Positions 6,671 through 44,476 of a stretch of DNA of 64,000 nt are shown one piece after another. The number at the start of each line of letters is the position of its first letter. Position 1 is the stretch's first letter. The notes below the pieces were generated by a model, which saw nothing but the letters and a program-made list of their open reading frames with translations, had not been told where the DNA came from and ran no database searches. Position numbers and translations under genes: made by a program. This DNA comes from Amoebophrya sp. A120 (taxonomy: Eukaryota; Protista; Dinoflagellata), in assembly GCA_905178155.1 (NCBI GenBank), contig CAJINV010000001.1:15438142-15502141 (forward strand). The letters are read 5' to 3'.

Positions 6671-8346
6671 ATGACCGAGCCAACCCTGGTGGACTGCCCA
6701 TCGGCAAGCTGGGAGAAGGTGGACAGCAGCATATTTCAAGTCCGGGGCGCGGAGTACCTTTCAGACAAGGTCAAAACAAACAGTCTCGAAAGCCTTTACG
6801 AGTGCTACCATGTGGCATTCGTTCGGGGAAAGCACGGAAAAATCGACAAGTCAGAGATATACTCCGCTCTCGTACAGCAGGGCAAAGTTAACCTGCGAAT
6901 GAGCAAAACAGGTACATGCACATCAGCTGAGAAGAGCTTCGTCTTTCAATCATGGTGCTGCTATGTTTTTCTGTACGCGTCACCAAGTTCAGGGGCATCC
7001 TGATTTTTCTCACGCAGATACGCACATTGGTATAGACCCACGCATGCATGAGCAATTTCATTCAAAACCACAGAAGCATCAGTACCCGAGTACCTCGTTG
7101 TACACGGCCAGATGCCATGCGTGGGACCCAGCTTACTCGGAGGGAACAGCAAGGACGACTTTGGGTGCTCCCTCATAGCATGGTTCAAGCTGCGAGACGG
7201 TGTCGACCTCGACTGTCCCGCTTTGTCGCTCCTGCAACGAATGCTGGAGCATGGATCGAGTCAGCGAAATGGTATAAGTAGAGTTGGTGTTGTACTCATT
7301 TGGCTGCGCACGTTAATCATGCCAAGGGCATTCGCGTTGTCATAGATTTGATATTTTTGAAAACCAAAAATATCAGGCGTGTCCTTCAAGGCAATAGGAT
7401 TTTGCGAAACGTGGGAGAATCTGGGTATTCCGGACGCTGCGAAAGGCTACAACGGCAAGCCATCACTCATCGCAGATTCACTACGCTTGTGCCACGAGTA
7501 CATATCTATCGTTCTGAGCTCTTGGAGATAAATTGTGGAGCCGAAGCTGAAAGCTTTTTGTGCACTTTCATGTCCTGCCTTTGAGAAAATCGTGGACTAA
7601 CCTACAAAACTCCCCTCTTTGAATGATACAGTAGAAAAGTTTATTGTTCTGCTGTGCGAATTTCACAGCAAGCCTATTAATCCTAAAAACAGAAACAACG
7701 TGGCGATACTAGAGTTTGACGTGCGAAAATGGTCCTACCTTGCGAGGAATTGCCTTCATTCCGCGATGACCAACAAGGAAAAGTCAAAGCTGAACCGAAT
7801 TCGCATCGGCTACCTGATGGAGGGAAAGACGCCCGAGGAGCTGCCGGAGCAGCTCCTGGGATGTTTCGTGATATCGAACATGGTATCAAATGCAAAATCC
7901 TCGTACTCGTACTAATCGCAGATATGCATGACAAATCTGGTTCCCAAGGTAAATCAGCATGACAAATTCCATTTTCCATTCTGAGAAAATTTGTCATGCG
8001 ATTTATACTAGTGCGATACTTTTGCAATGCATACATGGATGTGGACGAGTTTCCCTTCATAGACGCGGGCTCACCCGTATGGCGTTCTCAAGCGTTACAC
8101 TCTCAACTGTTACGTGATTTGTCATGCAGAATGACCATGAGCCGCAAGACGATCAAGCTGCTTCGCATGACAAATTATCGAACGGCTAAACAGCATCTAG
8201 ATCCGTGCCAAATTTGTAATGCAAGACTTGCAAGCTTTCCCCTTTTCCCATTGCTGTTTTCGCATTATATGGGTTTGGGTTGCGTTTGTGGTTTCGGTCG
8301 GTTTAGCATTACAAATCCATGTAACAGTTGCGAATGTAACAGTTGA
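6671..8346 (+). CDS. EDR2 C-terminal (DUF1336-type) domain protein; exons approx. 6671-6911, 7074-7271, 7377-7497, 7669-7883, 8039 onward (3' end uncertain)
   Basis: WEKVDSSIFQVRGAEYLSDKVK, FKAIG, YNGKPSLI, LEFDVRKWSYLAR and IGYLMEGKTPEELPEQLLGCF match the EDR2-C pattern. Three GT-AG introns plus one introner at 7884-8033. Confidence 0.75.
7884..8033. mobile_element. 150-bp MITE-like introner, family A, in the EDR2-C gene
   Basis: TSD CATGG at 7879-7883 and 8034-8038; imperfect TIR (TATCAAATGCAAAA...TTTTGCAATGCATA); homologous to 28120-28269 and 42404-42571. Removing 155 nt joins ISNM to DVDEFPFID. Confidence 0.88.
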
Positions 8347-9147
8347 GAACGCCACAACCCGAAAAGCTGGACAGCGGGCGTCGCGGCAGCGGGATTTTAA
8401 AGAGCCTGTTTGGTTGACTGGGTTTTCTTTATCGATATCGTTTGCGTTCCTGTTCGGAATTCAGTGGAAAGCTTGCAGCGTGCCGCTCGTTCTAATGAAC
8501 TGCGTAAGGAATAATTTTAGATGCGAATCGCACGATCGCAAAATTCGCTGCTGCGGTCACAAATGTTGACACTTGTGTTGCTCACAGCCGTCGTGGTCCC
8601 AGGTTGCCGTTATAATTTGCAGCCGTTAGACCACTCCGAGTCACAGCCAAGCATATGACCGGTAGTGTGAATACGCCAAAGAACAATCCGAGATGACACG
8701 CTGCTGTCGGAGCCGGGGGCGTGGATGACGCGCTCCCTAGAAAAATGCGAACTTTTTCAAAAATTAGTGCCTGTGGCTTCCACCAGGCGCAGGGTAGGCC
8801 AGGGGTTGATTCTTTGTTCAACGAAAAACTTGTACCGGTGGGTGCCGTCCACGGGATTACCGAAGCTCAGTTCTTCTGTGGTTCGCTGAACACGGGCGTG
8901 GTCCTCAGATTTTCGTAGAAGTACCGAAGAGCAGCAGGAGCAGCTGCAGATGGCGCTCTTGTCGTGGTTTGTAGTTGATAATAGTAACTACAACTTGGTC
9001 GCGGCGACGGTCCCGTGTAGGCAAACAACATCACTCACTGGTTCAATTTATCTCGGAGCACGACCAAAATTTCCTAGAATATGCGTTGTACCTTCGAGTT
9101 TGATCTGAACAAGCCACGCCTTCGTTAACCTTTTATGAAACGAAAGA

Positions 9148-12100
9148 ATGTCAGCCAGTCCGGATTCGGGGACCCGGGACGATGAGGCCCTTGCTTTCAT
9201 CCACAAGCAGCACGACAATCTTTTCGCAGAATGGGTGTCGCTGGAGCTCCAGAGACCAGTTTCGGACATTTGGGCACTCAAGCCAGAGGACTTCTGCACA
9301 CTGGTTGGTTGTGGGGGTGGAACAGATTTTGCACGACACACCGGCGAGCAGCAGAAGACGGACATCGGGCTATCCCTGTCCTTCGCAAAGGTGGCCGAAT
9401 CCCATGGCAGGTCTGTCTGCGGAATGGATCTGCTCCGCGCGCTGGACAAGTATGAAAGCAGTTGTCCACAAGTCTTCATACCACCATCCGACGCCGCAAC
9501 ACAAGGCACGAATGAGGAAGATGTTGTAGCAACAGAAAGTGCTAGTTGTCCTCTTGCCTCGTCGACTACCGCACCGCCGGTGCAGATGAAAAGTGGTGAT
9601 GCTACGACCGAAGAACCGGAGGCGGCTACACTGAAGCGGCCGCGCTTGTCGACAGCGGAATCCTGGGACAACGAACACGATCAGTCGCGAGAGGAAGACC
9701 ACATGCTAGAAGCGAGACGCACAGTGCCGTCCGTCGTGATCCCGCAAACAGAACCATTTTTGCCACCGAGTCCTCTCGAAGATCGATTCATGTTCACGCG
9801 GCGCTGTTTGGGGCTGCTCGGTGAAACAAGTTCCCTGTCTCTGATCGCGAAAGATGAAAAAAATTCTCCCGAAGTGAAAATCGCACCTGCGCCAACGCCG
9901 GTCAGCCCTTCGCGCGCAGCTAATGGGACAATTACAAACGGCTGCAATAGCAGCACTGCTACAACACCAACTGCGGCGAGCGAAACTGACCTTCCTGCTT
10001 ACTCAGGAACAGGATTGCAAACAGAAAAGCAGGCAGTATCCGCGTCATTTTGTTCTGTGCAGGAGAAAGAAAACCTGGATGTTCACAAAAAGACCGATGG
10101 TTCCTCGTCAAGCAAGAAGTGCGAAATTCCGTGGTATCTCCTTTACTGCGAGGAAGAACAGCCGCAGACCCCTGCAGTCGCTGAAGGCGTTCCCGTCATC
10201 TTGGAATCCCTCCTAAACAGCCCGACGGAATTGTCTCGTTGGCGATTGCGCCGCTTTTTCCACACCATAATTTTACAGACCTGCCGTGATCGCGGTTTTG
10301 CAGTCAGCTCAAGCGACGAAACTGCTCTGCAAGATGCGCAATGGGACAGATTTCATCTTTCTGTGAAAAGTGCAGACACGACGGAGGAGCAAAAGAAGAA
10401 AGACGAAAAGAGCTGCGGCTTTGATGAAACTGAAAATCTGCGGAAATACGTTTCGCTACTGGTAAAACAGCAGGGGAACGTAAAGGCTGGAGGCGTTGGA
10501 GATGACGTTGTTGATTCCGCCACCTTCTTCGGCCAAAGAAAGTCGTTTCATTTGGGTGCGAAGCCACGCAAGAGCTGCCTGCGAGCGCCATCGCGAGCCA
10601 CACTGCGGCTCGATCCAAAAAGCATAGCGGTACCCGCCATGGCACGGGCTTCATTGGCGCAACAGAAAGGCGTGAAGTTTCTTCAGGTTTTCGCAGACGA
10701 CCAGGCACAGCAAAAGGAGCAAACGACGAGTCCGGCCTCGGCCACCGCAGGAGAACTTTCCGAAAACCTCGCGATTGCCGACCAAAAGGCCGCGAAACTT
10801 TTCGATTGGATAAACGAGGTTTTGATGGTCAAGGAGGCAGAGCGGGCCAGTTTCGTCACGGCACAGATTCAGCTGAAAGCAGAAAGCACTGAGAATATTC
10901 TCGTCGGGGTCGAGCCGGGAATCGGGAAGGAGGAAGGGGAGATGAATCAGGCTGGCGAACAAGAGCCGACTCCGGCAAAAGCCAGCAGCAGCAGCAGTTG
11001 CGCCAGCGAGTTGCGAACGTCCACGTCTGTTGCAATCACTTCGCAAACAGCGAAAGAAGACACGCTGCATAGGCGCAAGAGCCATTTTTCCTCGCATTTC
11101 TCAGAATACACACACAGAGTTGGCAGCTTTACCGACCTGTTGAGCGGCGAAGTTTTGTGCGACCTGGTGTTGAAATTGCTGTTTTACACGCACGACCGGC
11201 CACAGTGGACAACTGCAGTACTTCTGGACTATTTTGATGCTGTACACGGTTATTCCGCAGAAAACAGATATACCCAGCTATCGACTTCTGGCACCCGCAC
11301 CAGGACCAGCGGCACATCATCCTCATCATTTTTGGCCGCTCCTTCGTCAGTAAGGCGTGGCGAGGTCCAACACCTAGACAACATGCGTCGGTTTCTGACG
11401 ATAGCGCGCGAAGTTTGCCGCGTGCCGTTGGAGCTGCTTTTCTCTCTACAGGATTTTCCGTCGCGGAGTGTCCACACCGCGGCTCTGAGCAAAGTTGCCA
11501 GGTGTCTCGAAGCTCTGCGCTATCTCACGATTCCGAAAAGTTGCAGCGTCATCAAGCCGGATCCACTCCCACTTCTCAAGGATGAGAACAAAGACGCTGG
11601 TGAACGTCTTCTCGTACAAGCCACTACAACGAGTCGAGTTCTTCCAGGATCCTCATCGGACGAAAGCGTGATCGCGAAACTTTTGTTTGACAGTGGGCAC
11701 CGCCTCCATGGTGGGCTGTTGGGCCATCCGCAGAGCACCTGGCGAAGCGGAAAGGGCGATCGGATGATGCACCGGCGACTCAGCACCCAATTCACTGCGG
11801 CACACGGAAATCAACACGCTCACCTGTCATCGTCTCGCGACGAGCGAAGCAGTCAACTGAAGAAATCTGGATCGATCCTGGTCCGTGGTGGAAATTCATG
11901 CTCGTTCCCATCTACGCTTTCCCCGCGCAATAGTGCAGTTGCTAGTCTTACTGGCATCGTAGCCGGTGTTGGCTGCAGCAAGCTTGACGTTGGCGGTTTG
12001 CAGCATCAAGACAATAAATCTGATGTTGACCTCGCGCAGCCACCGCATCTCTTCGGTGCCGGCACACTGCTGCGCGGGGATACGAAGTCGTGGTTCCGGA

Positions 12101-13998: not shown

Positions 13999-14665
13999 GC
14001 AGAGCATGAACACGCTCAAGTTCTACTATTGTGCGAAGTCGGGGTGCTGTAGATCAAATGACACATAGCACTCCATGCTAGTATTCTGGTTCTTCAGAAG
14101 TCACAGTCGGTCCGCCACAGAAATGTCGAAGTTTCCAACGATATCGGTCCGAAATTTTGCTCCTTTACGTGAAGATCGTCTAAAAATGTAAGTCTCGGAC
14201 AAAGAAACAGAAAGTAGAGAAAGTAGTAGAGAAACTTTTGATCGTTTTGGAAAAGTGCTGAACCAGGCCCAGGCGGCCACTTCTGGAGGAAAAATGGAAC
14301 CTTCTTTTAGCCTGCGGCTGCACGATCACAGTTCAATGAAACTGCGCGATGATTAAAACTGCAGAATCTGTTCCTTCGTGCTGGTGCTGGTGGGTGTGTT
14401 TTGAGGAGAATCAGTGCCGCAGTTTTCTCCAGTGAATTTGCGACAAAGATATAGACGATTTGACATCAAGGCTTAGGGTTTGACATTCCTAGTGTCCTCG
14501 CAGTTTTGATATCATCAAGCTTTCAATATAATATTAGATTTTGATATCAAGACCAAGAGCGTAATACTACTCTGTGTTAGTGAGACAAGGTCAGAGTAGG
14601 AACAAAGAAGAGAGATTGACTTTACGACTTCACCAGCTTCGCTTAGCTATCCAAACGCCGCAGAG

Positions 14666-26355: not shown

Positions 26356-29300
26356 ATGGCGCCCCGCGCACGGCTAACATCGCTGGTGCTGACAGGCGTG
26401 TCCTGCTGGGACGCGCAAAATGACCCCACCCGGGAGTTTCCGAACGTCAATTTTGCACCGACGAACTCGCCGTCTTTGCTCCGAGAAAAGTATTTCACGT
26501 CCGGCGGATCGAGTTCATCTTCCGCTGGAGGTTCGCGGGCCAGCAATGCTGCGGGAGGTGGAAATAAGCAAGGAGATACAAATTCAAATAAACACAACCA
26601 TCAAGATGCGAATCAAAGACGAGAGAGGCGAGCCGGTGCGCGCGACCACGAAAACAATAATTACAACAATCCCTTCAAGGACTGGAGGAATAAAAAGCCG
26701 ATCACCGAACTCGAGTTATCGCCTGAGGACATCATCCAGCGGCGGGCGCTCCGACAGGCGGCGATCGAATTTTCCAATCGAAAAATGTTTGCCAAATACG
26801 GCCACGCCAGGAAGTACCTGAATCCGCGAATGGACGAACCGGGCCAGGATGAATATTTGAGTCCCGACGAAGTGGCGGCTCTCTCGTTGCAAGACTTCAC
26901 GCACGCTCCAGGGGAAGCGCGGGCGACCGAGGAAAAACACCTGGGTGCCGCTGCGGCCGCGGCCCTGCAAGTTGATGGGCCGACCAACCACGATAGGTCA
27001 AGCGATCGGAAGTTGGGGATTCAAGAGCCGGGAGTCGTGAACCCGGACGGTGTGGAAGCAGGAGGAGGTGTAGCTTCTCCGGATGTAGTTGTTTCGGCGT
27101 CGTCTGCAAGCAGCTCAGTGGACCAGACCGAGGCTGTCTCCTCCTCCGGCACAGCGAGCAGCCGCGAAGAGGATACTAGTGCCTCTGCGCAGCAGCAGCA
27201 ACGACAGAAACTTTTCGAGTCCGTGGTGCACAATGCACGGGCCTCAGAGCGAAAGCGCATGTTGCAGCACAAACCGGCGATGGTGAAGTCCGTCACTGAC
27301 ATAGCGAGACAGTACCTGAGTCAGATCGTAGAAACAGCGGCAACAGACGCATCGTCACCGAACGAAGCTGGTGAAACTCCATCGCGGCGGTCCTTAGGAG
27401 ATCCTAGTAGTAAAACAGCCGGCATTAAGAATAGTGCTGTACCTCCCGTCGTACCAGGAGGACTAGCAACTTCCAGGCGCGGCTACTTGAATAGTCTTGT
27501 GGAGAAAACACTTTCCGTGCTAGAGAAGACACACGACGACCGCGAGGCTCACAAAGACCCCAAAACATCTTCCTCACCGGCGGCTTCAACATCAAACATA
27601 GCAGCAAGGCCAGGGGAGAGCGGCAGCGACTACGCGCGCAGACTGCAAGCAGAGGTCGACGGCGCTTTGAATACCGTCGTTTCCGAGGAGGAAAGGCAAA
27701 CCGCCGAAACCGCAAGTCACGATACCGACTACAAGGAAATCGACCGTTCGGTGTTCTACAGCCAACTGGCCGAGGTAGAAGCGGTGCTTCGGCACCTAAC
27801 GACCGGGACTTATCAAATGTAAAAATGTCTGGGTCTGGAAGATTGCGAGATTTGTCATGCAGATTTTCCATGACCCATGAGGTCTGGAATGCCGGGCCTA
27901 GCATGACAGAGTCTGTAAGGTCTCTGCCATGCCTATCCCGCATGAGAAACTACCTCCCAACTTGGTCGAAAGTGGACAGCTTTTGGCACTCATGCAACAC
28001 AGATTTTTGCATTATTCGGATTTAGCATGACAAGTTTTAATCTTCCAGACCCAGACATTTTTACATTTGATAGGACCGGGAGCGCCACGACCGCGCCGCC
28101 TGGTGGAGCAGTAAACGCGTATCCTGTGCAAAAGTATCGTACTCGTACTAATTGCTTTTATGCATTGCAAATATTTTTCTTAAGGCAAATCCGCATTACA
28201 AATTCAATTTGTAATGCTGAGCTAATTTGTGTTGCAATTTATACTAGTACGATGCTTTTGCAGTTCATAACGCGACGTCCACGACAACGACCACAACCTT
28301 GGGATGCATCCGCAACTGTTGCGAGGACGTGAAAATATCCGTGCGCATCCTCGCGGACGAATACATGGATTTGGGGCTGGGAGTGGTATTTTTCTCTTTT
28401 CCTGCTGGGCTGGTCAGCTGCTTTTCTTTGAGAACACGACTTACCAGCACAGCACGAACACAAAGTTCTGCTTCGAAATTCAGGTCGTCCTTGAGGACAT
28501 CGTCGAAGTGTCATTGTCGGAAATAACAGAAAAAAATTACCCTTTTTACTGACCAAAACAGAACCTGCGCCAGACCTGGTCTGACTTGAGCAAGACGGAG
28601 TGCCAGAAGGTGGACTGCCAGTGCGAGATGATTTCCGACTGGGTCGAAACACAGTGCATTTTTTACGTGTCGCAAATCATAACGTCCGGCACAGAAGTGC
28701 AAAACTACTGTACCGGTGCGGGTGGGACAAGGTCACTCTTCGAAAAAGCATACTGTCCTGCCGCTTGCTTGCCCGTAGATTGCAACGACCAGCAGGGCCA
28801 ACAGTGCATGGGAACGTGCGGCGACTTTCTCGGTATAGGGAATTTTGGAATACTATTGGATTCTTCGCGAAAAAGCGAAAGAAGATGCGAGGTTGTTAAT
28901 AGCATACTGGATGTGACTAGTCTCAGGTTGCTCTTCAATCTCCTTCTCTCTAAAACAAGTATAAAATCGCACTATCTACTACAGATTGCCGCTGCAGTAA
29001 CCGTTTAGGAGGCTCTAAGCCGCCACGGTGTGAGGGGCTTACGGAAATCACGAAGGAACCGTGTTACGAGCCACCGGGAATCTGTGCCATGCACACGCCC
29101 TCCGTCGGGCAGTGCGCGCCTTACCACTTTTGTCCGAAGAATTTGTGCAACATTCTTAATGTGGTGTGTGTGCCAGACGATATGTGCCAGGGGGACGGCA
29201 TTTGCATTCCTAGCACTGGACAATGCGTGTACCCCAACCTTGCAAAAGGGACGCCCTGCGAGGATAATATCTTCTACACCTACAACAAAACCTGCAACGG

Positions 29301-31340
29301 CATGGGGACATGTGTCGGTATAGTGAATTTACTTTTTTAGCTCTTCATCACCATCTACACCGGCCAAAGCCGAAAATCGATGTTGCTTACTGCATTTTGA
29401 ACATTCTTGCATTGTTTTTGTTTTGATGCAAAAAACTAAAACAAGCTTTAGCTTACCACCAGCAGTACCCACGCCGGAAATTTCAACTTTTCAGGTTTGG
29501 TGAACATGTGCCAGCAGCACAACATACAATGTCGCTCGGGCGTCCCAGACTGCACCTTCCTTCCAGGGAACTGCCAGCCAGAAACAGGGCGGTGTGTCTA
29601 CGATTTCAAGCCGGACGACACGGAGTGTGATGACGCGCGCCCGTACACAGTGGGCGACCAGTGTCAAAAAGGTGCTTACAAGTTGTTTTGGTTAGTACAA
29701 CAAAAATCGCACGATAATTTTCCTGTTTTTTTTTCCGTCAGACGTAGATTGCGCATCTTCGTACCTACTATTTTCTTCAGGTCTGTGCGTTGGGACCATA
29801 GTGGATCTCTGTGCGAGCGTGGACTGTGCGCCGGTGCAGTGTCAAGACGAAGGGACCTGCCACGATACGTGTTTTGGTACCTGTGACAAGTCCACTGGTG
29901 CGTGCATCTATCCAAGAAAACCGAACGGGGTTCCATGCAACGACCGACAGCCCGACATTGCAGGCAGAAAGCCCGTTTGCATTGACGGTGTTTGCGTCGG
30001 AGACCCATATTTTGGCAACCCGCAGTACAGAACCGTAGGGGAGGGCCAATGCGTGGACAACCTTGGTATAACAGCTATTTTCTTCACTACAGATGAGGAT
30101 TCTAGATCTAGTACATGATGCAGAGAATCTGATGACTTCATGTTTTTTCTATTTGAAAGAAAACGTAGACGAAACTGAACGGACGCATTTAAGTTTCTTT
30201 TCGTGAATAGAATTCTTATCCACCACCACTACTACAAAAACGTAGGTTTCCGCATGAACGCGCAGCAGGGAGACGTGGGGGAGGAAAAGGAGTGCAAGAG
30301 GCTGTGCACGATGGATAACCAGTGCAAGGGTTACAGCTTTGCCTTTCCTGTGTGTACGCTCTTCGGGACGGTACGGTCCACGACAGACATGCCTGGGTGG
30401 AACATGCTCGAGGGGGACCAGACCCCAGCGCTAGAGATCGAGCAAGTTCTGAAGCCCCGCCCCGGTGAACCGCAGTTCGTGTGTCGGAAAAAGGTAAAAG
30501 TACAAATTTGTGTTGTCGTGTTAGTCTCATGTCAGATTCAAATCTCTCAACGACTTTTGCTGGCTGAACTTCTGCCTTCGTGAACAAGTTGTTGATCCAA
30601 CACATGACGAACAAAAACGATCCACAGGCTTTTGAGGGCGATCCCGAAAGTGTCGGATTTACGGCGCTGAGTATCCTGATAGGCTGGGGTGGCTTTTCGA
30701 CGATTTTCAGCATAATACTCATTTTCTACTTCCGTGTGACGATATGGGAAGCCATGCTCGAGGGGAAGGACGCCTTCATGCGCAGAAAAGACGCCATGAT
30801 GGAGAAATACCGTGCGGGTCGCCAAGTCGACCGTACTTTTTGTTCATGATTTTTTGATGAATAATTTTCAGTTGATCTTCTCATATGAAATAAAAAATTG
30901 AACGTGCTGCACTGTAATATCATCCGATGACAGACTCTACTCATGATGTACATGATAGACAAAGGCAAAGTAAGGATTGATTTCCTCCTAAACGCCAAAC
31001 AGCATATTTCGGCGAGGAAGTTGAGTTAGAGATGGTGAAGGACCGGGACGCGCAGGGTGCCATACAGGACACGAACCCGCAGGGCGAGGTGGTTGAGAAG
31101 AAGGCCCGCGGACGCAAAATAGTCCAAGACGACGAGGGCAACGAGTACAGCGTCAGTGGGACCCCTTCCAGTGGCTCACAAGGGTCGGCAGGAGGGTCCG
31201 AGGAGGGGGACGAAGCACGGTCCCGGAGTCACGAAAGCGGCCAGTCAAGTGGCGGGGACCGACCGGACCCGGCCACGATCGGGAGCCCCTCCAAAGTGAC
31301 ACCCGAACCCGGGGAGGAAGGAGGGGAGGACCAGCCGTAA
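26356..31340 (+). CDS. Cys-rich repeat + PAN/Apple-like single-pass membrane protein, paralog A; about 10 exons
   Basis: Repeats of the type GTPCED...YT..C.G.G.C.G, PAN-like EKECKRLCTMDNQCKGYSF, TM LSILIGWGGFSTIFSIILIFYF. GT-AG introns 28386-28561, 28833-28984, 29318-29494, 29672-29780, 30066-30245, 30494-30627, 30833-31002, plus two introners. Confidence 0.78.
27811..28072. mobile_element. 262-bp MITE-like introner, family B, with a perfect 34-bp TIR
   Basis: TATCAAATGTAAAAATGTCTGGGTCTGGAAGATT at the left end and its exact reverse complement at the right; TSD GGACT/GGACC (27806-27810, 28073-28077). It contains an in-frame TAA; removing 267 nt gives HLTTGT-GSATTAPP. Confidence 0.9.
28120..28269. 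mobile_element. 150-bp MITE-like introner, family A
   Basis: TSD ACGCG (28115-28119, 28270-28274); TIR core TGCAAAAGTATCGTACT / AGTACGATGCTTTTGCA. Removing 155 nt gives GAVNA-TSTTTTTTLGCIRNCC. Confidence 0.9.
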
Positions 31341-32407
31341 CGGCGGTGGGTTTATCCACGACTCAGATTTTTTTCGAAACCACAGTTTCAAGAACCTTCA
31401 AGAAATGATCTGTTTTACTACTTAGTCAGAGAACTCAATTTGAAAGCTAAAGCATGGCTTTTGCTAGCAACGGAAATCCTAAGTTTGACTCAATTTGACA
31501 CGAAATAGTTAAAAGCAGAATACAACGTCCCAGGGAGGATTTCCCTTACCTGGGCGAGTCCGCTCGTCGCGCTCAGATGCTCATCATTCTTTGGCTCTCT
31601 GCGCTTGATGAAAGGAAATTTTTACAGTAGACGCGGCGAGAGCTAGGAAAGACGAGTTCGGGCGGGCGAAATATGTTGTATGAAGAAATACGATGTTTTT
31701 GAAACTTCGTTTGACCTTTAATCCTTTTACGAATCAAAATCCAAATTATTGCATTTGCACCAGCCAGTGGTAGCTCGTCATCCCCTTGATGTAGATGCCA
31801 TTGTGCATATTGTCACAACACTTGACAAATTTACCCCAGAATTATTGAAATGCCTTGTATTTGCATTGTGAAGTAATTCTAATTGGACAAAGATCCCTTC
31901 CAAGGAAAACGAAAACAAGCTACACCAGCAATCCACAACTTGGAGCAGGAGCTTTGTTCGCCCGCTCCAGGATTTTTTCTAATGCTGTCACGACAAACGA
32001 TGTTCCTGATGTGAGTGCTGCTGATTTTGTGGACTTCTTGTGTTTCTTTCATGACCTACTAGTCGCGAAAAAAGAGAGATCCTGATGCAGTGAAGAGATC
32101 ATGATTTCTTTTTCGTGTGTAAGTACTTATTAAATTCATCTGAGGTCTTCGGAGTGATGAGTGCAACAGCAGCTGTTAAAAAGTACCCTTGGAACAACGA
32201 ACCACGACGCAGATCTGATCATCTGGAGAAGAACAACGGACCAGAACAAGGGATCCGGAGCATGGCAGCTTGGGAAGCTGGCTCGGAGATACTGAAACAT
32301 CATGACATCGTCGAGCGCGGCGCCACGACGGGGACGTGCGATATTGTTCGAACCGTGCGTCGTGATTTCTGGTGAGCGACCGTGCCTCGGCACCGCGCGG
32401 CATCAGC

Positions 32408-35400
32408 ATGGCCATGGGCATGATGACTACCTCGAAACCGCTCATGAGCAGGTCAATTTTTTCCGGAGAAGCCGCGCCAGCTCGCATTTGCTTCCGACGC
32501 CGGAAGAAGATACCATTTCATGTACTTCTCCCGACGGTCGTCGTCGTCCTCGTGATCGCTGCAGCGAATGTAGGTTGTTCTACGGTCGACGACGAGGCGG
32601 CCCTCGAGGGGCCGCCGAGCTCCCCCGGAGGTGAAATTCTTCGATCGCTGCAGAGCACGTCCTTGGACGCCGGAAACACAACGGCCGATGGCACGGTCAC
32701 CGGGTGCACGCAGTCCTGCTGTGCGAACGTGCGGAAAGCAGTGGAGGTGCTTGCTTCGGAGTTTTCAGACCTTGGCGTGGATGCAGTACTGGTTTTGCTA
32801 TACGATTGTCGGAACACGATCACATTTGACATGGACATTTTTCGTTTTGATTGAACATGCACCTAATTATCACAATGAATGTGGATCATGTCCTAGTAGA
32901 TCTAGAACTAGCTCTGGGTTTGTGCTGTTGATTTCCGTTTCCCATATCGTCTCACATTTCAGCAACACACTATATATCGCAGGAAGCTCAGAAGGAATGG
33001 GCGCGGTTGGCCGAAGACCAGTGCCCGTTGCTGAATTGCGACTGCGAGGAAATGAGCGCGTACGTGGAGACGCGGTGCAACTTCCACGTAGGCGCGGAGG
33101 TGATGTCCGTGGACGAAGCAAGAAAGTACTGCGCGGACACGCGGGCGCTGTTCCGCGACGGGTACTGCCCGGGCGCCTGCCAGGTCACTCACCAGGAGTG
33201 CAACAGCGTTCCCGGCCAACGGTGCATGCGTCAGTGTGGCAACTGGCAGGACTGCAAGTGCAAGAACCGCCGGGGCACGACCTTTCCGGTCCAGTGCGAT
33301 GGGGTGGTGGAGATCTCGCGCGAACACTGTGTGAACAATCCGCCGCCGCCGAGCTGCGGCGCGCACCATGTGGAGGCGAGCATTTGTGCGCGGTACCACT
33401 TCTGCCCGAAAAACCAGTGCCTGATCCGCAACGTGTTCTGTCAGGCCGACGACCTCTGCCAGGGGGAAGGCATCTGCATTCCCAGCACCGGAGGCTGCGT
33501 ATTTCCGAACCTCCCGAAAGGTGTTTTTGGCTCGTTCTTTCATCAGTACGAGGCACAAGTGACGAGAGCATTCTTTGCTTTGCCGTTGCTCATGTCCTCA
33601 GAATGTCATTCGTCGTTTTCCATATGAACAATTTTGTTCCAAAGATTTCTTGTTCAAAATCAAATCCAAATGTGAGATCACACCATCAAGGTACGCCCTG
33701 TGACGATAGCCTTTTCTACACGCCTCGCGAGAGCGATAAGTGTGACGGGCTCGGGAAGTGCGTCGGCGTGCCGGACCTCTGCGAGCTGCACAATGTGAAA
33801 TGCCTGGACGCGGATCCGGCCTGTGCGGTGCTGCCTGGTACCTGCAGCCCGGACAGCGGGAAATGCGTGTACCAGTTTCGGCAAGACAGCACGATTTGCG
33901 ACGACAACCGGTTCTACACGGTCGGTGACCAGTGCAGAAGCGGGCTGTGCGAGGGGGTGATCGTGGACCTGTGCGCCAATGTGGAGTATTGAGAGGAAAA
34001 ATCCCCCCTCCCCATATTGAAAAGGTATGTTTCCAAAAATTTGTGTTGCGGATTTGAGGTCACAAATCACATCTGTCTTGCAAGAAGACAAGGGCAGAAG
34101 CTTCCGCCCCATTATGGAAGCGGTTTGCCATGCTGTTGGGCCTAAAGGGGGGCCGTTTGCCATGCTGAACTACTAGACCCATACGCCCCTACCTAGCCTG
34201 GGGATCTGGCCGCAGTGCCTCTCTGCAATACAAAGCTGATTTGTGGCCACAAATCAGCATCACGAATTTCCGTTTTGATATGGGGACGGGGGATTTTTCA
34301 TTTTGATATGGAGTGCGGAAAACCCGCCAACGACCCCTGCCGGGGGGACGGGCGGTGCCAGCCCGCGACGGGGCGGTGCGCCTTCCCGGAGCTGCCGGAC
34401 GGTACGAGTTGCGGCCGCCACTCGCAGTGCATCGAGGGCTTGTGCATGGCCGACGAGTTTCGGGGCGCGCCCAAGTGGCTCACGGTCGGCCAGGGGCAGT
34501 GCGCGGACTCGTTGGGCAAGCGAATGGCCGCGTTGCAGCGCGATGTGGAAGACGAGTTCGCGTGTCAGGGGTTGTGCGGCGGGGACGTCTCGTGCAAGGG
34601 GTACAATTACGTGTTCGAGTCCTCCAGCTGTACGATGTATTCCTCGATCAGGACAGTCGCGCCCACCGGAGGCATCGCGTTCGGGTTTGCGGCGGTAGAA
34701 GAGTCTTATTGGGTTTCGTTATGCTGTATGGTTCTTGCTTCAATCTTGGTGCGTAGTTCTCGGTTTCGCGTGAAGTAGATCCTTTTTGCTTATGTCATCG
34801 CACAGAGTTATCAGAGATTTGCTCAAGAGCATGACACGGCCAACAACATCAACACAGGCCGACATTCCGCCCTCGCTGGAAATCAGCCACGTTCTGACCC
34901 CGCTTCCCGGCGAGGCGGGCAGCGTGTGCAAAAAGAAGGACCACAAGGGAGACCCGGCCGCAGCAGGAAGCCTCTGGCGGGAGTTCTTCGACTTCATGCA
35001 AGGTCCGGGGATCATTCTGCTCACGGCTTTAAGTCTCCTCGGCTACTTTTGGGTATCCGTGAAGGAGGCAAGTTTGGCATTCAAGCACAGTGCCGCCAAG
35101 GTGCTGTCGCCGGCCGGCCGGAAGGCGGCAGCTGCGCGCATGCAGGAAAGGATGCAGCGGCAATCGCGAAAGTTCGAAGAAATGGTAGAAAACTCCCCGA
35201 CCCTTCGCACGGTTCGCGACAAGACGCTGCTGACCTTGTCACCAAAAAATGGTGTGCGTGGTAGTCCGAAAAAAAAGAGCCCGAAAAAGAAAAAGAAGAA
35301 GCAGGACCAGCACGGTAGAGGTATTAGGAAAAGAAAGAGCCGACTATACAAGGTAGATCCGGAAGAGGGAGTCGGAATAGAAGATGAACAACACCGACAA

Positions 35401-36255
35401 GAAGAAGAAGATTTTGAAACAACTACACAACATCAAGCCGACAGGCAGGTGTCAGACATTCTCCAAAAGAAGAGAGAGACCGCAGAGCAAAAGAGAAAAA
35501 AGCAGCCGCAATCTCGGGCGAGCACATTGCGGTTTGAATCAGAAGCGGAGGTGGCGGAATACGATTACGAGGACGGTTCGTCCGAAGGCGAAGAAACCGA
35601 TTCATCATCGGACGCCGATGCAAATCTCGACGGCATCGAGTCGCTTGAAGATGCAGAGGGCGTTGGGCAGAGAAAATCCTTCTACAAGAAGGCCGTGACG
35701 AGGTTGTCGTCGATGTTTCAGTGGAGTTGGCGCACGACACGGCTCAGCTTTCAAGAGAGTACGACAAGTAGCTTCTTTCTCCGCCGGAATAACAACCGGG
35801 AGAAAGGCCCGTCGGATCATGAGGAGAAAGAGGATACCAGTGTGGAAGTGGTTACAACTGGAAGCAAGGCAGAACAAGAAGGCTCAGCATCCGAGCTGCA
35901 ACATCAAGCTGATGATAGCAAAGCCGTACCGGCGGGGCGGCAATCGAAGTCCTCCATGCACCGACCGTCCGAAAAATCACAGTCGGGCAGGGTATCGCGC
36001 AGCGGAAGAAGTAGGAGCAATGCTGATGAAGAGCTTGACAAGAACGCAACAACAAACCGCAAGTCGAGGAAATCTGAGCAGCAAGGGAACGACCAAGCGC
36101 AAGCACCATCTGAAGGACCAGAACCTCTGCGACAGGAAGATGTAGTGCGGCATCACGAAAATAAGATGAAAATCGAGGATTTTGACGACGATCTCGACAA
36201 GGGCGGACGAGGAACTGGCAGTCCTGTAAAAAGGACGATCATCGAAGAAAGTTGA
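32408..36255 (+). CDS. Cys-rich repeat + PAN/Apple-like single-pass membrane protein, paralog B; exons approx. 32408-32785, 32983-33520, 33691-33986, 34314-34694, 34858-36255
   Basis: Collinear with paralog A (YHFCPKNQCLIRNVFC vs YHFCPKNLCNILNVVC; TVGQGQCADSLG vs TVGEGQCVDNLG); N-terminal hydrophobic segment, TM GIILLTALSLLGYFWV, long charged tail. Start codon uncertain. Confidence 0.78.
33987..34308. mobile_element. 322-bp MITE-like introner, family C
   Basis: TSD TGGAG (33982-33986, 34309-34313); ~39-bp imperfect TIR with core GAAAAATCCCCC(C/G)TCCCCATAT. It contains an in-frame TGA; removing 327 nt gives DLCANVE-CGKPANDPC. Confidence 0.88.
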
Positions 36256-37074
36256 AGCGGCTAGTAAATTAAGTTTGGGAAGGAAGTAGTAATTATCGTC
36301 ACACGTGTCTAGTAGTTGCTGTGCACCACGCGCAGTCATTGCAAAAATGTTCTGCTGCTGGTTTTTAATATTTAAATCGTACTAATTGTAGTAGAGTAAA
36401 AAAAGTGACAGTGACTGCTTATAGGGTAGAACATGCGCTGCAAGCGCATGCAGAACATGAATGCGAAGTTTCGATATGAGGTTGCTTCGAGTAGCAACGA
36501 ACTGCAAAGGTATTTGGAACTACAACATGCCACCGGCCTCCTGCTGGCAAGGTTTTTTTTGGCATAAGGGTCGTGTGAGTGCTACTTTGGAATCTCAAAA
36601 ACGATTGCTGAGAATCTTCAATTTTCCAGGACGGCGCAGGGAAAGAATGAGCTCTTCACTGCAACAAGTAAATTGTTGCGGTTGATGAAGAGACTAAGAC
36701 CGTGAACCAGAAGCAACATGTTGAGGAGCTGCACACAATGACGCGGCGCGGGCGCCTTACCTGTACATGGTAGCGTGTTCCGAGTTCTCCTCCCAATTGC
36801 TTCGAGTCTCAAACTCGGCTAAGCTGCGCCGCTTCTTCGTTCCGCAGCTTCTGCCGTCGATACCCTTTAATTCCCATCGATGCGGAGATCAAAGTTACAG
36901 TTAGCATGGAAAAGTGCGTGCAGGTGGGAACAGATCGCAACGGGGCGCGTCATTGATTGAAGACCTTGAAAGTTCAAAAAACTAGGATCAAAAAAAGTAA
37001 AAAACGATCCCCTCTGTGTAGTAATTCTTGTTGCCGTCTCTCTGCTTCGCAACCCGAACCCGAATACGTCCAAG

Positions 37075-38364
37075 ATGAGGTCTTACGCAGCTTCTGCCGC
37101 AGCCTCGACGGCTGCGGCTTCATCGTCTTCCTCCACTGCGGTGCGTAGAAGTACCACTTCTGCGGCTATGCAGTCCTCCAAAATTTCAGAGAACGGAACT
37201 TCCCAGGCCCTGTTTATTGAGTGCCTGAACAAAATCCGGGAGACCCGTTTGAACGTGGAAAACCACGCGACACAGAATCTGATGCGGCGCGCCAAGGAGG
37301 AGATTCGAAAGCTGACAAACGACGAAATTCATTTGGTTCGGAAGCAGTTTGAACGGTTAGAGCACGGGGACCACGTGCACGAACTGAAAAGCAGCACTGT
37401 GAAACCGGACACGACGGCAAGGGTGATGCAGCGCGACGGAGGCCAGTTGGCGGCGCGACTGCTGCCCGGAGGGGACCCCGCGAGTACCAAAGCAAGCGCT
37501 TCGACTTCGGTTGGGGCTGGCAGCACCTCTTCGGCGTTGAACGACCCAACAATCGCAACACCTCTTCGGCGTTCGTTCCAGGAGCACAACATCGACCCGT
37601 ATTGGGACCCTTTTTTTGAGGTGCAGACCGAAAAAGAGCGGGTGAACGCTGAGTTTGTCGAGTATGCAAAGGTCGTGTCCGCCGCCGAGGCCCGAGAGAA
37701 GCGGCTGGAGATTCGGCGCGCGGTCCGGCGCGCAGTGGTGTTGAGATACGGCTCCCGGTACGACCCTCTCAAGTACCACGGCGGCGAACAACTGCCGCAG
37801 GACGTACCGAAGCCCCACCGACTGCACGAGCGCTTTTGGACCCCGAACGACCGGCAACAAAAAATCAACGCGGAGCGCGCCATCACGTGGCGCGACGTCG
37901 ATTTGCTGCAACACCACCTGGCACCGAACGGCTGGATCCTTCCGCGACGCACCACCATGCTGTCCCGCAAGAACCAGCGGCGCATGACCAAGGCGGTAAA
38001 CACAGCACGCGCCATGGCGTTACTGCCGTTCGACTGGCGGCCCTCGGATTTTGAGTCGATGCCACTGATGGATCCGCTGCAGTTTACGGTGGACCGATTG
38101 ACGAACGAGGTGGCCAAGCCGCGGGCACGGGCGATGCTGGAGGTGATGCAGGAGAAGTATCCGGAGTTGAACTTTCGTGCGTACGACAAGTGGAAAACGG
38201 AGCTTTTTAGAGACGCTGCAAAGCAAGAAAAACGAAGTAGTAGGGCTGCATCAAAAGAGCCGTCGAGAACAGGAGCTGCAAGGGGACACAAGACAACCGG
38301 ACGGGACGGGGATGGCGGGGAACAACAATCCGCGGAAAAAGGCGACGCAGCTTTTGAGGAATAA
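37075..38364 (+). CDS. Mitochondrial ribosomal protein bS18m, extended form
   Basis: S18 core ITWRDVDLLQHHLAPNGWILPRRTTMLSRKNQRRMTKAVNTARAMALLPF; Ser/Ala/Arg-rich, acid-poor N-terminus resembling a mitochondrial presequence; single exon. Confidence 0.82.
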   Translation: MRSYAASAAASTAAASSSSSTAVRRSTTSAAMQSSKISENGTSQALFIECLNKIRETRLNVENHATQNLMRRAKEEIRKLTNDEIHLVRKQFERLEHGDHVHELKSSTVKPDTTARVMQRDGGQLAARLLPGGDPASTKASASTSVGAGSTSSALNDPTIATPLRRSFQEHNIDPYWDPFFEVQTEKERVNAEFVEYAKVVSAAEAREKRLEIRRAVRRAVVLRYGSRYDPLKYHGGEQLPQDVPKPHRLHERFWTPNDRQQKINAERAITWRDVDLLQHHLAPNGWILPRRTTMLSRKNQRRMTKAVNTARAMALLPFDWRPSDFESMPLMDPLQFTVDRLTNEVAKPRARAMLEVMQEKYPELNFRAYDKWKTELFRDAAKQEKRSSRAASKEPSRTGAARGHKTTGRDGDGGEQQSAEKGDAAFEE

Positions 38365-39420
38365 AATGCTGATGTTGAAGTAAACAATTACGAGCAAGAC
38401 GATGATCGATTTAAAGGCAACGATGTATATCAACAATAAAATAGGTCCTGCTCAAAATTAAAATGTACGTCTACTACTAGCAGAACTATCTCCGCGAAGT
38501 AAGTAATTTTTTTGTCTGAAATGCTTCTTCCCGCGACGAGAATTCCAATTCACGGCGGAGACGGTGGCGGACTGCAAACGTGGCAATAAAAACTTCGGTA
38601 CCGAAGAAATCACATTTGTTGAATTGACAAGGCCGTATTGAAGGTGTTCGCGTTCATTGTTGTGGCATGTACTTACGAGAAATAAGTGCGAAATAATCTC
38701 TCCTCTCTGTCATTTTTGCTATCGGTCGGAGCAAGCCTTGATCTGCCACTTTACTTTTTTTCCTAGTGCAATTTGAGTGTGTATTTTTAAAGCTAGGCAA
38801 AGCAACATGAAACAGTTCACAAAGAACCAAGCGAGCGCGAGACTTTCCCTGCGAGGGCGCAGCTGGCTCTGCTTCACGCTGTTTCTGCTGCGACAGCCAC
38901 CCACATAATCTATCCTGGTATATAATTTCAAGCCTCGTGCAGGTGCACGAGCACGTGCGTATCTTCTCTACTTACGTACGGAAGCATCATGATGATACTC
39001 ATACATGTGTATGTGTATGTGCTGGAACAAGCGAAGTATGGCTCTGCTCCGAGCACGTGCGTCTACCGTCACGACGATAACAGACTTTGCAGGAACAAAT
39101 GTAGACATAGAGTGTGATTTGTTTTTGATTGGTCGTCGTCAGTGTGTAGAAAAACGTGTATCAAAATCATGTCAAGACCGAACATTTCCGCAGGAAGACA
39201 TGAGCTGTCTGACTCCGAGTGTTTGAAGCCGCCGAACAGGTCGCCGCCTTAACAAATGCGTCCCATTTGGATGAGCACATGGCCATCGACCGACGTGGTT
39301 CGTCCGCTCCAATAGCATTGGCTTGGTGCCAACACCCGACACGTTAGCAGGCGTTGCGTTTCGCTTTCCACTCGGCGACGAAGCCCACACAGAACCACCT
39401 CTACTTCCACAGACGAGAAG

Positions 39421-42400
39421 ATGCTGGTGCCCGTTACTGCGGAAAAATGCCTGCACGCCAATCTCCGCCTGTTGCGCAGGCTCGTGCAGGCGGCGGAGGT
39501 GTGGGCACTTCGCACGGGGCAGCGGTTCGGTTTTCAAACTGCGTCTTCTTCTGTTCTGGCAATTCTGGTCGTTCTGTACATTGCCATGTCGCGAAAAGCG
39601 AGGAGCGTTGCCATGTTTGACGTTTTTGTCCGCTTGCCGATTTTCCTGGTGCCCTTCGTCGCGTTGCGTCGCACGGTCCGGTTGTTGATGACCCGGCTGC
39701 AGCGCGAGATGTTTGCGGCGGAGGGGTTGGGCGAGCACATTTGGCTGAGTGGGGGAGACTCGTCGGTAGGCTTTGATCAGCACGTACCGACAAAAACAAG
39801 CAAACACGTGGACCCCTACGTGTCGGACCTTCTTCCCACCGCGGCGCTGATGATCGGGCGGCAGGGCACGCAGAAGCTGGATTTCTATGTCGCAGTGATC
39901 CGCGACTATTTGAAATCTGTTTTCCGCTTCAGCCAGGGTGTGGGGAAAAGCGCCTTGAAATACCTGGTCGGCGTGTGGCTCTCCGTGGAACTCGGGTTCT
40001 ACATCTGGTTCTACTTCAAAAAACGCGGACTAAACAAGCGCGAGCACCAGTTTCCGCTCCACTCGTCCAATACGAAAACACGCCTGGAGCTGCTCATGTG
40101 GTGGTTGGACACGCTCGACCGTGCGGCCCTGGCGCGGCTCGAAGCGGCGTCACAGCACGAAGCGGAAACAGCACCGACGCTGACCTCGGAGCTACACGAA
40201 AACGACAGCATGCGATCGTCGTCTCTTCACGACCTCAGGGTACTGATTTATTTTGTGGCCTCGTTTCTTTCTGAATCAGTAACAGTATCAGAAAGATCAC
40301 AGGATGTCTCGCCGTGTCATCTCACAATGAAAGAATAGAAAAGATTCATTAAGACTAAGTTAGTAGATGTACGAAGCTACAACATGTAAACGTACTCCAG
40401 GAGCACTCCGGTATTGGTGTGGTTTCCAGTGCCGAGGAGCTTGCGGATGCCCACGGCTCCAGCCCACGCCTTGTGCGCGCTGCGCCACCGCCGAAAGTGG
40501 CGAGCAGAGCTCGACTGCTTCTTGGGCAGCGGTTGAGCGTCTTCGACGAAGGTGACAACACAAACTCTTCCACTGTCGGCCGCTTTTCTAAACTGGCGCG
40601 GAGCTACAGTATGGCCGACGCGTTCGCTTCTGTCAATAACAGTGTTAATACGCCCACCGGCGCGAGTAACGCTACGACTAGACCGCTCAGCAAAAGCGGC
40701 AGCTTCACCAAGCACATGGTCCGGCGACAGGCAAGCTTGGACACTTCGGGCTCCGACGGCGGGCCCCCACTCGTCATTCCGGGTGGAGGGCGAAGTGGCC
40801 TTCAATCGACCAACTCGCGCAGCCACGGCCGAATCACACCCATCGCCGGAAGCCGGAGTCACGCAGTCGTGTTTCCTCCACAACTTACAACATCGAACGA
40901 TCATGGCGCAGCAGTAGGGTCTACTTCATCATCTTCTAGGACGTTGCAGCGACGCAGCAAGGATTTTCTGCAACTCCGGCAAACTATGTCGTCGAAAGGA
41001 GTGCTGCTTCCTTCTGTTTGCAGCAAGGTTGATCTGCAGGCCTACACATGTATGATGGAACGGGAGTTCAAGTCACATTTCGATGAGTCACAGCTCGCCG
41101 GTATAGGAAGGCGCGGGGAGGACGACCTTGACCTGGATGACGACGTTCCCGCACTGGATTTGCCGCCTAGAGAGGCTCGCTCACGCGATGCGTCGAAGGA
41201 GTCAGCTGGGACGCGACAACAGGACGTAATCGAGAGGAGCCCGAATGCCCACAACAGAAAGCTCGGTGAACAAAGTGATACAGGGGGACCAATGTCGAAA
41301 AAAACCGCAGGGCCGATTGCGAGGCCAAGGAATAAGAACGGGGAGCTGGTGCACGAAAGAACTTCTGTGGCCTCGAACGCGTCTGCGTTAGGTACCGCAC
41401 TCGAATTTGGTCCTCGAAGCAAGAATGAATTGACAAAGCAACTCACTCGCATGGCGTCGATGCTTCCGCGCGCGTCGCAGGTCAGCGTCATCGCGCCCGC
41501 CCGCCATGTCGTCTCCAAAAGCGTGTTGGCATGGCGAGACGTGCTGAAACTCTTCATCGTGCAGATCCGGCGGGCCTTGCCGTTTAGCTTGGCTATTAAG
41601 GTTGGAGACTTGTCTTCGGGAATAATTGGCGTGTTTAAGCCACTTCTAAATCTCCTGATTAACATGAACCCGCTGCTGAGCGACGACCTGGTTTCCGTGC
41701 TGACGGTCGACCTAGAGTTCGCAGCGAGCGGGTACGGCCAGGAAACGCAAGGGATGGAGGCAATTCTGCACGCGCTAGAGAAAGAAGACAACGTCATGCT
41801 GCTGCCGACCTCGTTGATGGACCTGCGACGTGCGGAGTTCGCGTCATGGTATAGCAAATCGTTATTTTCTTGAGCTCGACCACGAGGACGACGAGCGCAG
41901 CTGAAAGAAGACGTTAGAAAGTTTGACCATGCAGCCTAGAAACCAGTACAACTTAGCTTCGAAACTTAGTAAGTTGTACTCTTTAGCCATTTTATTTGCA
42001 ACGGCAGCTGCACCTTATCATGCTTTGTCACTATCAGGTTCACCGACGACCTGGTTTCTAACTGGGCCGACATCTACCGCCCCGTCGACCTGCGCCTGGT
42101 GTCCCGAAAAGACGTGGAGGAGTGGGTTGCAACGCACTGGTTCGAAGCCCGCCTGCTCGCGGACATCATGCGCGCGTCGCCAGAAGAGTACAGCGAGCTG
42201 AAGGAGATGGCCAAATACGTCATCAACTGGGCCGAAGTGGGGCAAATTTTGTCCAAGAAAAAAGTGAAGGCCTGGTGGAACTGCTACCATGACGAACTGC
42301 CCGTGCTCTACCGTCCGGCGCTGGTCTACTTCACCACCACACTGGTGCTTCCCGGCGTGGAGAAGTACCTCTTTTCCCTCGATTTTCAGCCGGAACGGAT

Positions 42401-44476
42401 CCATATCCTGTGCAAAAGTATCGTACTCGTACTAATTGCATTCATGCATTACAAATCTCTTTCTCAAGGTAAATCAGCATTAGAAATTGAATTTTTAATG
42501 CTGGGCTAATTTGTAATGCAATTTCTACTAGAACTAGTACGTGTACGACTACGATGCTTTTGCATTGCATAATCCAAGCGAAGAAAGCCGAGTTGTTAGT
42601 CTTGCAGAGAAGCCGGAGAAATGCCGAGAAGGAGAAGTCAGGCAGCAAGCGAAGTGCAGCGAAAAAGAACTTGAGCGCACTCGTCGCGGCGGAGGAGCTC
42701 GCGCAGAAGAGTCAGAGCATGCTGCCGGCGTTCGTCCAGTCACTAGTCGGGTTTGGCGGCTTTGAAGAGAAGTATCGCGGCACGATGCGATACTTCTACC
42801 GGCGCGCGACGAACCCAAAAGCGACCCCAAAGCGGACGAGCCGTGTAGCTTTTTCGTCCTCTACAGGCGGAAAGATGACCAAGATGAGAGAAGAAGATCC
42901 GGAAATCACGACGAGCAGCAGCCCGGAGAAGCCAAGCACGCACGACCAAGAATATAATCTGTTACACGGTGCTGGCGGAACATCAATGTCTTCAAGCGGA
43001 ATGAGAACAACTAACTCCCGAGGCGTACAACTGGCTGGTCAGAGCAGCATGATGCCAAATAGCAGTAGCCGTACCACCCTGAATATCGGGACACGCGTGC
43101 CGTCGCAAGCGACGTTAGACTTGACGGGAAACCTGGCGACACCCTCGCAGCCCATGCGGTTTTCGCGGCAACACACGTCCGAAGACGGCCCGAGTTCTCT
43201 ATTTGGCAATGAGAAGCAAGAAGAACAACAAACTTTCGTCGAGAACAACAATCGGCCTCTCCCCTTGGTCCTGTGCCACGGGTTGGGGGTCGGTTTGGTG
43301 GGGTATGGTACCATGGTGCGCGGTATGGTCGAGACCTTCGGGGAGGAATACGACTTGTTTGTGTTGTCAGAGCCCTGGGTGAGCATGCGGGTCTACGACG
43401 CAGTTCCCACGGGAAGGGAAGTCGCGCTCGCGATCATGCATGTGCTGGATTTCCACGGCTACCAATCCGCGCATTTTGTCGGTCACAGCTACGGCACGGC
43501 GATCTGCAGCTGGTGCGTGAAGCACGCGCCCAGCATGGTAAAGAAGTTGACGTTGCTGGATCCGGTGTGCTTCCAGACCCTGAAGACCGCCTTGGGCACG
43601 ATGTCGGGCACGTTCCGCGAGCCCGGAAACATCGTGGACGCAGTGATTTCCTACGTCGCGTTTCGCGAGTTGTTCACTGTCTTCGCCATGTCGTGGATTC
43701 ACTGGCAGGACACGGAGCTGTTCCCCGAAGTGTTGCCGCAGGGCCAAACGCTCGTGTTTTTACAAGAAAACGACAGCATCGTTCCGGTGCAAACCGTCCG
43801 CGGCTACCTCTCCGAGTACGAACCGTTGCTGAAAATCGTCTACAACCCGGGCACGTTTCACGCGTGCTTCCTGCTACCCCAGTTCAACTACCTCCTGCAA
43901 ACGGTGCTGTGCGAGATCCTGAGTTTGCACGAGAAACCAGATCATGCTTTTGGGGGCGCTAGCGCCATGAACGACGCAGCTCTACTACCGGGGACGAGTA
44001 ACAACGGAGGCGCTGGAGTAGAAATGCAAATGAATGCAAGTTCTTTGAACGATTTCCCCTTGACTTTGACCAGCGACTTGACGATCCGCAGTTCGGGGCA
44101 GGATTTGAGCGCGTTGTACCAGCAGCATGCCCCGGTGATACTAGAAGAGGACGACCACGTGGAGGAGGAGATCGCCCATCTCCTGAAAGTCGGGCACGAA
44201 CACGAGGAAGCCATTGCCGATCTTAGTCGAGCGACAAGCAAGAACTACAGTGAAGACGACGAGCGCGAACGGGAACGGAGAACCAAAATATCCAGCCCCC
44301 GCAACGTAATCCTAATCAGTCCACCGCCGGGAACTACAAAGCCTACTCTCGATTCCGTACTAGTGCAACCTCCACCGGTGTCTACCCCAGGATCCGGCTT
44401 TGCCACGAACATCGTCCAACAAATGAGCTCGCCGACCGAGAGTGACAGCTACAGCAACAGCGCCGCCAGTGATTAG
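39421..44476 (+). CDS. Membrane-associated alpha/beta-hydrolase fold protein; exons approx. 39421-40239, 40401-41848, 42038-42403, 42577-44476
   Basis: PLVLCHGLGVG, nucleophile elbow HFVGHSYG, LLDPVCF, QENDSIVP, GTFH; N-terminal hydrophobic helices. Two GT-AG introns (40240-40400, 41849-42037) and one introner. Confidence 0.78.
42404..42571. mobile_element. 168-bp MITE-like introner, family A
   Basis: TSD ATCCA (42399-42403, 42572-42576); the first ~36 nt are identical to the 28120 copy (TATCCTGTGCAAAAGTATCGTACTCGTACTAATTGC). Removing 173 nt gives QPERI-QAKKAELL. Confidence 0.9.

Follow-up and report, generated by a model that had tools for sequence, protein, structure and literature searches.

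The stretch of DNA analysed here (the window) comprises 64,000 nucleotides of contig CAJINV010000001.1 from the dinoflagellate Amoebophrya sp. A120, and it contains four genes whose coding sequences are interrupted by six short inserts, here called elements 1 to 6 (Table 1). Our conclusion, held with a probability of about 0.88, is that the six inserts are A120 introner elements, likely non-autonomous DNA transposons with terminal inverted repeats (TIRs), which probably leave the pre-mRNA through cuts at the base of the hairpin predicted for their ends.

Table 1. Coordinates of the six elements and their host genes; TIR identity is given as matches over the outer 24 nt of each element.
Feature	Position	Strand	Description
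Element 1	7884..8033		150 nt, 150-nt family; repeat CATGG on both flanks; TIR 17/24
Element 6	8078..8356		279 nt, TAT...ACA; repeat ACCCG; TIR 20/24; fourth TIR family, without A-run
Element 2	27811..28072		262 nt; perfect 34-nt TIR; repeat GGACT/GGACC (one mismatch); TIR 24/24
Element 3	28120..28269		150 nt, 150-nt family; repeat ACGCG; TIR 19/24
Element 4	33987..34308		322 nt; repeat TGGAG; TIR 19/24
Element 5	42404..42571		168 nt, 150-nt family, extra segment towards the 3′ end; repeat ATCCA; TIR 19/24
Host gene 1	6671..8417	+	EDR2 C-terminal domain protein (PF07059), 281 aa, six exon pieces; elements 1 and 6
Host gene 2	26356..31340	+	Cysteine-rich protein, weak PAN-domain match; elements 2 and 3, seven GT-AG introns
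Host gene 3	32983..36252	+	PAN-domain paralog of gene 2; element 4; 5′ end undefined
Host gene 4	39316..44476	+	Long protein, alpha/beta hydrolase match; element 5

Anatomy of the inserts

An initial annotation of the window had described five inserts in four genes, each running from TAT to ATA, bearing TIRs and flanked by 5-bp direct repeats. All of these features were found, at a level far above that of shuffled windows. The window has 10,076 TAT..ATA pairs, of which elements 1–5 and no others passed a combined filter (flanking repeat with at most one mismatch, TIR identity of at least 15/24, length of at most 500 nt), compared with no passing pair in 18 and a single one in 2 of 20 shuffled windows. 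The five inserts and the four genes thus stood, but a sixth insert, element 6, had been missed; it was found by a TIR scan without fixed ends, 44 nt behind element 1, and the other two neighbours in the window, elements 2 and 3, lie 47 nt apart. Scanning for TIRs with any ends gave 21 matches versus 1–7 in three shuffles, with nothing notable beyond the six elements and inner registers.

A 5-bp direct repeat flanks all six elements, with a mismatch in one of them. The motif TAT-N7-AAA fits 10 of the 10 ends of elements 1–5, and both ends of element 6 fail it. Three internal families united by one terminal rule had been proposed; with element 6, which ends in ACA, there are four, and they have an inner motif in common as well as their ends. 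Terminal stems are predicted for every element (z-scores of −4.4 to −12.9, 60 dinucleotide shuffles each), the predicted duplex taking up the last 25–35 nt. Rfam returned 0 matches at gathering score over the whole window, including no match to a group I or group II self-splicing intron.

With TIRs, a target-site duplication (TSD) of fixed length, small size and no coding capacity in any of the six, the elements have the traits of miniature inverted-repeat transposable elements (MITEs). They are also repeated in the genome: each has between 1 and 55 relatives among 119 elements found elsewhere (see below), and 18,968 records of the DNA-like sequencing run X5 pile up on them, a figure that is not a copy number. 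The intergenic stretch 46300–47880 contains inverted repeats nested in one another, along with a 13-nt motif that occurs four times at intervals, twice per direction, and differs from the 150-nt family's TIR core by at most two mismatches; X5 depth goes up at 46318. This stretch is possibly a long degenerate relative of the elements, or else some other repeat.

Removal of the elements from transcripts

Each of elements 1–5 puts a stop or a frameshift into its host frame when retained, as the initial annotation had it. The host frame stays open when the element is removed together with 5 nt (155, 267, 155, 327 and 173 nt for elements 1–5 respectively), and removal with 4 or 6 nt shifts it. The accompanying claim that such deletions restore an uninterrupted protein was right for the frame at all five sites, but gene 1 then runs into element 6.

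The removal itself was seen in contigs of four sequencing runs, X1–X4. Over positions 27500–42900 these contigs contain 15 joints, namely 12 GT-AG introns and 3 exact element skips. Element 2 (joint 27805 to 28073, 267 nt skipped, downstream repeat copy kept), element 3 (28113 to 28269, 155 nt) and element 5 (42398 to 42572, 173 nt) are each skipped in four of four runs, alongside GT-AG introns of the host genes, and one contig skips elements 2 and 3 plus seven canonical introns of gene 2. These joints support scarless removal of elements 2, 3 and 5, each with one repeat copy, in the likely-RNA contigs. After joining at the read joints, host genes 2 and 4 have open frames of 1158 and 1545 codons; the joined frame of gene 3 was tested as far as 35400.

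The joined forms might instead be DNA, from empty-site alleles or from cells in which the transposon has excised, with the insert-bearing genes being broken. This would fit the guessed RNA status of X1–X4 and the fact that other runs provide no figure for the joined form, but the contigs in which elements are skipped have likewise lost seven GT-AG introns of one host gene, and contigs of X5, whose depth is flat near 28, read from the flanks into each element without differences. Together with the long frames across removed elements in the second assembly described below, this makes a DNA origin of the joints highly improbable.

For elements 1, 4 and 6, the evidence comes from proteins. At element 4, a 57% identical homolog (P0001) aligns gap-free over the junction only after a deletion of 327 nt; deletions of 324 and 330 nt fail. 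Among 7 candidates, three proteins matched the exon that precedes element 1, the best being P0002, an annotated protein of Amoebophrya sp. A120. P0002 maps to the window over all of its 281 residues, split into six pieces whose breaks include elements 1 and 6, and the public gene model therefore already treats both as introns. To reproduce the C-terminus of P0002, both elements have to go, each with one repeat copy (155 and 284 nt), and homologs from A25 and from transcripts (P0003 and P0004) align gap-free across element 1. By protein colinearity, scarless removal is supported for elements 1, 4 and 6 as well, in line with the RNA-level removal that had been proposed and that the exact joints bear out for elements 2, 3 and 5. 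At 27988–28072, about 200 reads of run X7 stem from a relative of element 2 at another locus, unspliced and with foreign flanks.

No GT-AG register is available in any of the six elements. That absence had been recorded in the initial annotation for its five, though a GA-AG register exists in element 2 and an AT-AC register in element 1. These two registers, and the G that precedes TAT in 4/6 elements and gives a GT donor, are what an ordinary spliceosome with nearby or relaxed G[TCA]-AG sites could build on. We consider it very unlikely that such a spliceosome suffices, and largely refuted: elements 3 and 5 are skipped exactly yet have no AG-ending register, a G[TCA]-AG register occurs in only 10 of 91 oriented elements of the second assembly (GT-AG in 3 of 91), and the minor spliceosome is reported absent. 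The 12 canonical introns (28384–42037) start with GTAT (5), GTAC (3), GTG (2), GTAA and GTAG, unlike the usual GTAAG; the GTAY start of 8 of them resembles the N-TAT at the element end.

Element 2, with its repeat mismatch, locates the cut. Since the downstream copy is kept (overlap 4, not 5), the 5′ cut must lie at least one base upstream of TAT, which rules out a cut flush with the TIR's 5′ end. Measured from the stem, the two cut offsets sum to 5 throughout. Drift of the repeat copies to A/T was seen at position 2 (downstream 6 versus 2) and position 5 (upstream 4 versus 1), other positions being flat and one locus being counted twice. Wherever the copies differ, the transcript reveals which one was kept, and this is a cheap handle on the chemistry of removal. 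Border counts in the available part of a published survey (family fam2: GT, CT, AT and TT starts, 69%; AG, AC, AT and AA ends, 68%; Gozashti 2025, PMC12130899) were left unused for placing the cut because they probably reflect an aligner preference for GT/AG and for the reverse complements of these.

As for the host genes, genes 2 and 3 (26356–36252) are tandem cysteine-rich PAN-domain paralogs with elements at differing positions. An open reading frame (ORF) with a ribosomal S18 domain follows at 37192–38226; in the 858-aa model of P0001 it is joined to the PAN gene, and that joint model is probably a gene-model fusion of syntenic neighbours. The Pfam scan covered 30 window ORFs, all on the + strand (only + strand ORFs were scanned), with matches that include DEAD helicase, PH, sulfotransferase, TSP1, UCH and LUC7. 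Co-oriented gene blocks have been reported for Amoebophrya, and the + strand ORF set agrees with this. The GC content of the window is 51.7%, against a published 51.2%.

Related elements in a second assembly

A 29-nt pattern taken from the 150-nt family and matched exactly retrieved 33 loci; all lie in one other assembly, and none overlaps the flanks of the window. We discarded pairs whose two ends came from different elements, long pairs whose repeats did not match, and five duplicates, and retained 119 elements, a set that may still hold two or three near-duplicate loci and of which ∼50–55 belong to the bait family. The evidence from this assembly is sequence only, with no reads on its loci.

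The 5-bp repeat was exact in 71 of 101 motif-defined elements and had at most one mismatch in 92; repeat lengths of 3, 4 and 6–9 occurred in at most 1 of the 101, and length 2 in 11. TAT stands at 237 of 238 ends here (the scan required TAT or TGT) and at 11 of 12 ends in the window. Removed lengths are evenly spread over the three frames (38/36/45 of the 119). A rule that was correct at 6/6 window junctions assigned a host strand to 91 of 118 elements. These oriented elements revealed no clear target preference (n = 91), the composition of the repeat being near flat with G at position 5 in 34 of 91 (p = 0.08). Within the 150-nt family, 21 elements have the orientation of the host gene and 18 the opposite one, and single frames of 424, 862 and 1264 codons contain elements of both orientations, the latter two frames spanning five and six removed elements. 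Removal with 5 nt placed 94 of 123 junctions in frames of at least 150 codons versus 68–74 for 3, 4 or 6 nt, a weak control with a high background.

An inner box of the GCATGACAAAT type, defined on the six window elements, was found in 116 of 119 elements compared with 0.9 in shuffles. In its forward form it is present in 58 of 91 oriented elements, 40 to > 110 nt from the 3′ end. We rejected the box as a branch point, given that its distance to the 3′ end varies. Gaps between neighbouring elements (n = 84) are rarely short: one is under 43 nt and 27 measure 43–73 nt. This shortage may be partly attributable to short-read assembly, and X5 shows some gaps of ∼20–37 nt elsewhere.

At L025:1371-1741, a 150-nt element (1415–1564) sits nested inside a second element, and both have 5-bp repeats of their own; at L028:63-3364, eight elements in 3.3 kb all fall inside one 423-codon frame once removed. 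At L027:729-1728, a member of the 150-nt family carries an insert of ∼850 nt, at whose edges no 7–9-bp repeat was found; this 1000-nt copy is the only one of its length among the second-assembly elements, and it has no frame over 138 codons.

The strict 5-bp duplication, the shared inner box, the occurrence of both orientations and the scarcity of gaps < 43 nt are possibly new details, although the figures or consensus sequences of published work may already show the box, the orientation and the spacing.

Insertion and removal in the light of known systems

The initial annotation had left it undecided whether families of this kind had been described. A120 is reported to carry 29,850 introner elements in 1,954 families, non-canonical introns with an inverted repeat of TAT, 7 nt and at least three A (Farhat 2021, PMC7789003). 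Their direct repeats are given as 3–5 nt of variable position (5 bp in the legend of Fig. S19), the position of the border as unknown, and their non-canonical borders as validated by RNA-seq, with a hairpin model. The window elements share with them the organism, the TAT motif, direct repeats, non-GT-AG removal and a predicted hairpin, and fit the published A120 introner elements. They differ in a repeat that is strictly 5 bp and in element 6, which has no A-run; the available text of that paper describes no inner box common to families, nor orientation or spacing. Among the 58 A120 rows of Gozashti 2025 (PMC12130899), most families are TIR DNA elements of ∼105–330 nt with mainly non-canonical borders. 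Class, size and borders are those of our six elements, which were matched to no numbered family in these rows.

Outside A120, nonconventional introns of euglenids likewise have a TIR stem that joins the ends, TSD-like borders, no GT-AG and a probable MITE origin (PMC11282704, in part), but they belong to an unrelated lineage, their stem motif is CAG/CTG, and circles have been shown there, whereas the window elements are known from contigs only. Introners of Micromonas and Aureococcus are also MITE-like, with TIR, TSD and removal of one TSD copy with the intron (PMC7789003, PMC11282704 and PMC9860276, in part); they carry or recruit canonical splice sites, which the window elements do not. Our literature search, judged by titles and the start of abstracts, returned nothing that resolves the removal mechanism.

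How did the elements arrive? TIRs, a repeat of fixed length and both orientations point to a DDE transposase with a 5-bp staggered cut, which probably inserts them. Acting in trans from a gene elsewhere, it would move them by cut-and-paste, in either orientation and with little target preference. The best candidate for this enzyme, though a tentative one, is an integrase-like transposase of the Ginger/TDD type. It is suggested by a published A120 family, Gozashti family 38 (‘Ginger; 5-bp TSD, TA/TA Termini’; ∼810 nt), whose ORFs are similar to Copia and Gypsy (PMC12130899, in the rows available); our six elements, in contrast, have no coding capacity. Ginger2/TDD elements are TIR DNA transposons with an integrase-like transposase. 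TSDs measure 4 bp in Ginger1 and most Ginger2 but 5 bp in TDD-4 and TDD-5 (PMC2836005, in part), and the 5-bp TSD seen here agrees with the latter two. The TGTNR termini described there are not those of the window elements, which have TAT and shorter TIRs.

For removal, we slightly favour a stem-guided, modified form of the spliceosome. Its cuts would fall inside both repeat copies, at constant distances from the stem, and with one copy leaving together with the element, the exon would be restored whatever the dinucleotides. U1 is reported undetected in A25 and A120, and strain Kv has U1 and GT-AG introns; this difference, together with the GTAY start of 8/12 canonical introns, is why we prefer this machinery. 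That the TIR stem acts as the guide is our inference. As the main alternative, the same elements may be removed by a spliceosome-independent cut-and-ligate activity that reads the hairpin and releases full-length circles, as suggested for euglenids. Its appeal lies in the absence of conserved dinucleotides in any register, in a predicted duplex over the last 25–35 nt, in an inner box whose position and presence (58/91) are unlike those of a branch point, and in the circular exit of euglenid introns with TIRs and TSD-like repeats (PMC11282704, in part). However, A120 has nearly all spliceosome proteins as well as U2, U4, U5 and U6, the missing U1 tracks these introns across strains, and the canonical introns here mostly start like N-TAT (GTAY in 8/12, GTAT in 5). 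We therefore regard removal without a spliceosome as rather unlikely.

It is also conceivable, if doubtful, that the ‘unrelated’ A120 families form one superfamily, with TAT ends, 5-bp duplication and inner box, and that a single ruler sets the cuts in all of them. On the 5′ side the cut would then fall one base before TAT, N-TAT mimicking GTAT/GTAC donors with the first G relaxed; on the 3′ side it would fall four bases beyond the stem, without any acceptor sequence, and the machinery would need ∼40 nt of exon between neighbouring elements. If this is true, repeat mismatches would map the cut genome-wide from existing reads and settle the published question of the border.

Several points weigh against our reading of the six elements as transposons removed at the hairpin base. 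On the insertion side, the Pfam scan of the 30 + strand window ORFs found no transposase, and the available text of PMC7789003 reports none in A120 and argues against a general mobilisation by transposase. On the removal side, X1–X4 are contigs of one sample of one study, their RNA status only guessed, and removal of elements 1, 4 and 6 is seen through homologous proteins only. Element 4 gave no joint in X1–X4, its gene being thinly covered and contigs of the next intron reaching at most 102 nt towards it. The raw-read RNA runs X7 and X8 cover 2 and 4 of 30 bins, mostly with other copies of element 2. In the 150-nt family the outer 3–7 bases of the stem are poorly paired in the prediction, and the 21:18 orientation cannot separate shape- from sequence-guided cutting because TIRs show the same ends either way; for this reason it does not decide between spliceosome and cut-and-ligate removal either.

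Collectively, the system is real, was correctly read from the sequence and is already published for A120 (2021; classified further in 2025). The window adds examples rather than a discovery, and its remaining value lies in the proposed cut-site model for the chemistry of removal. What is remarkable about this organism is that its exons tolerate tens of thousands of transposon-like inserts, thanks to a removal that does without splice signals.

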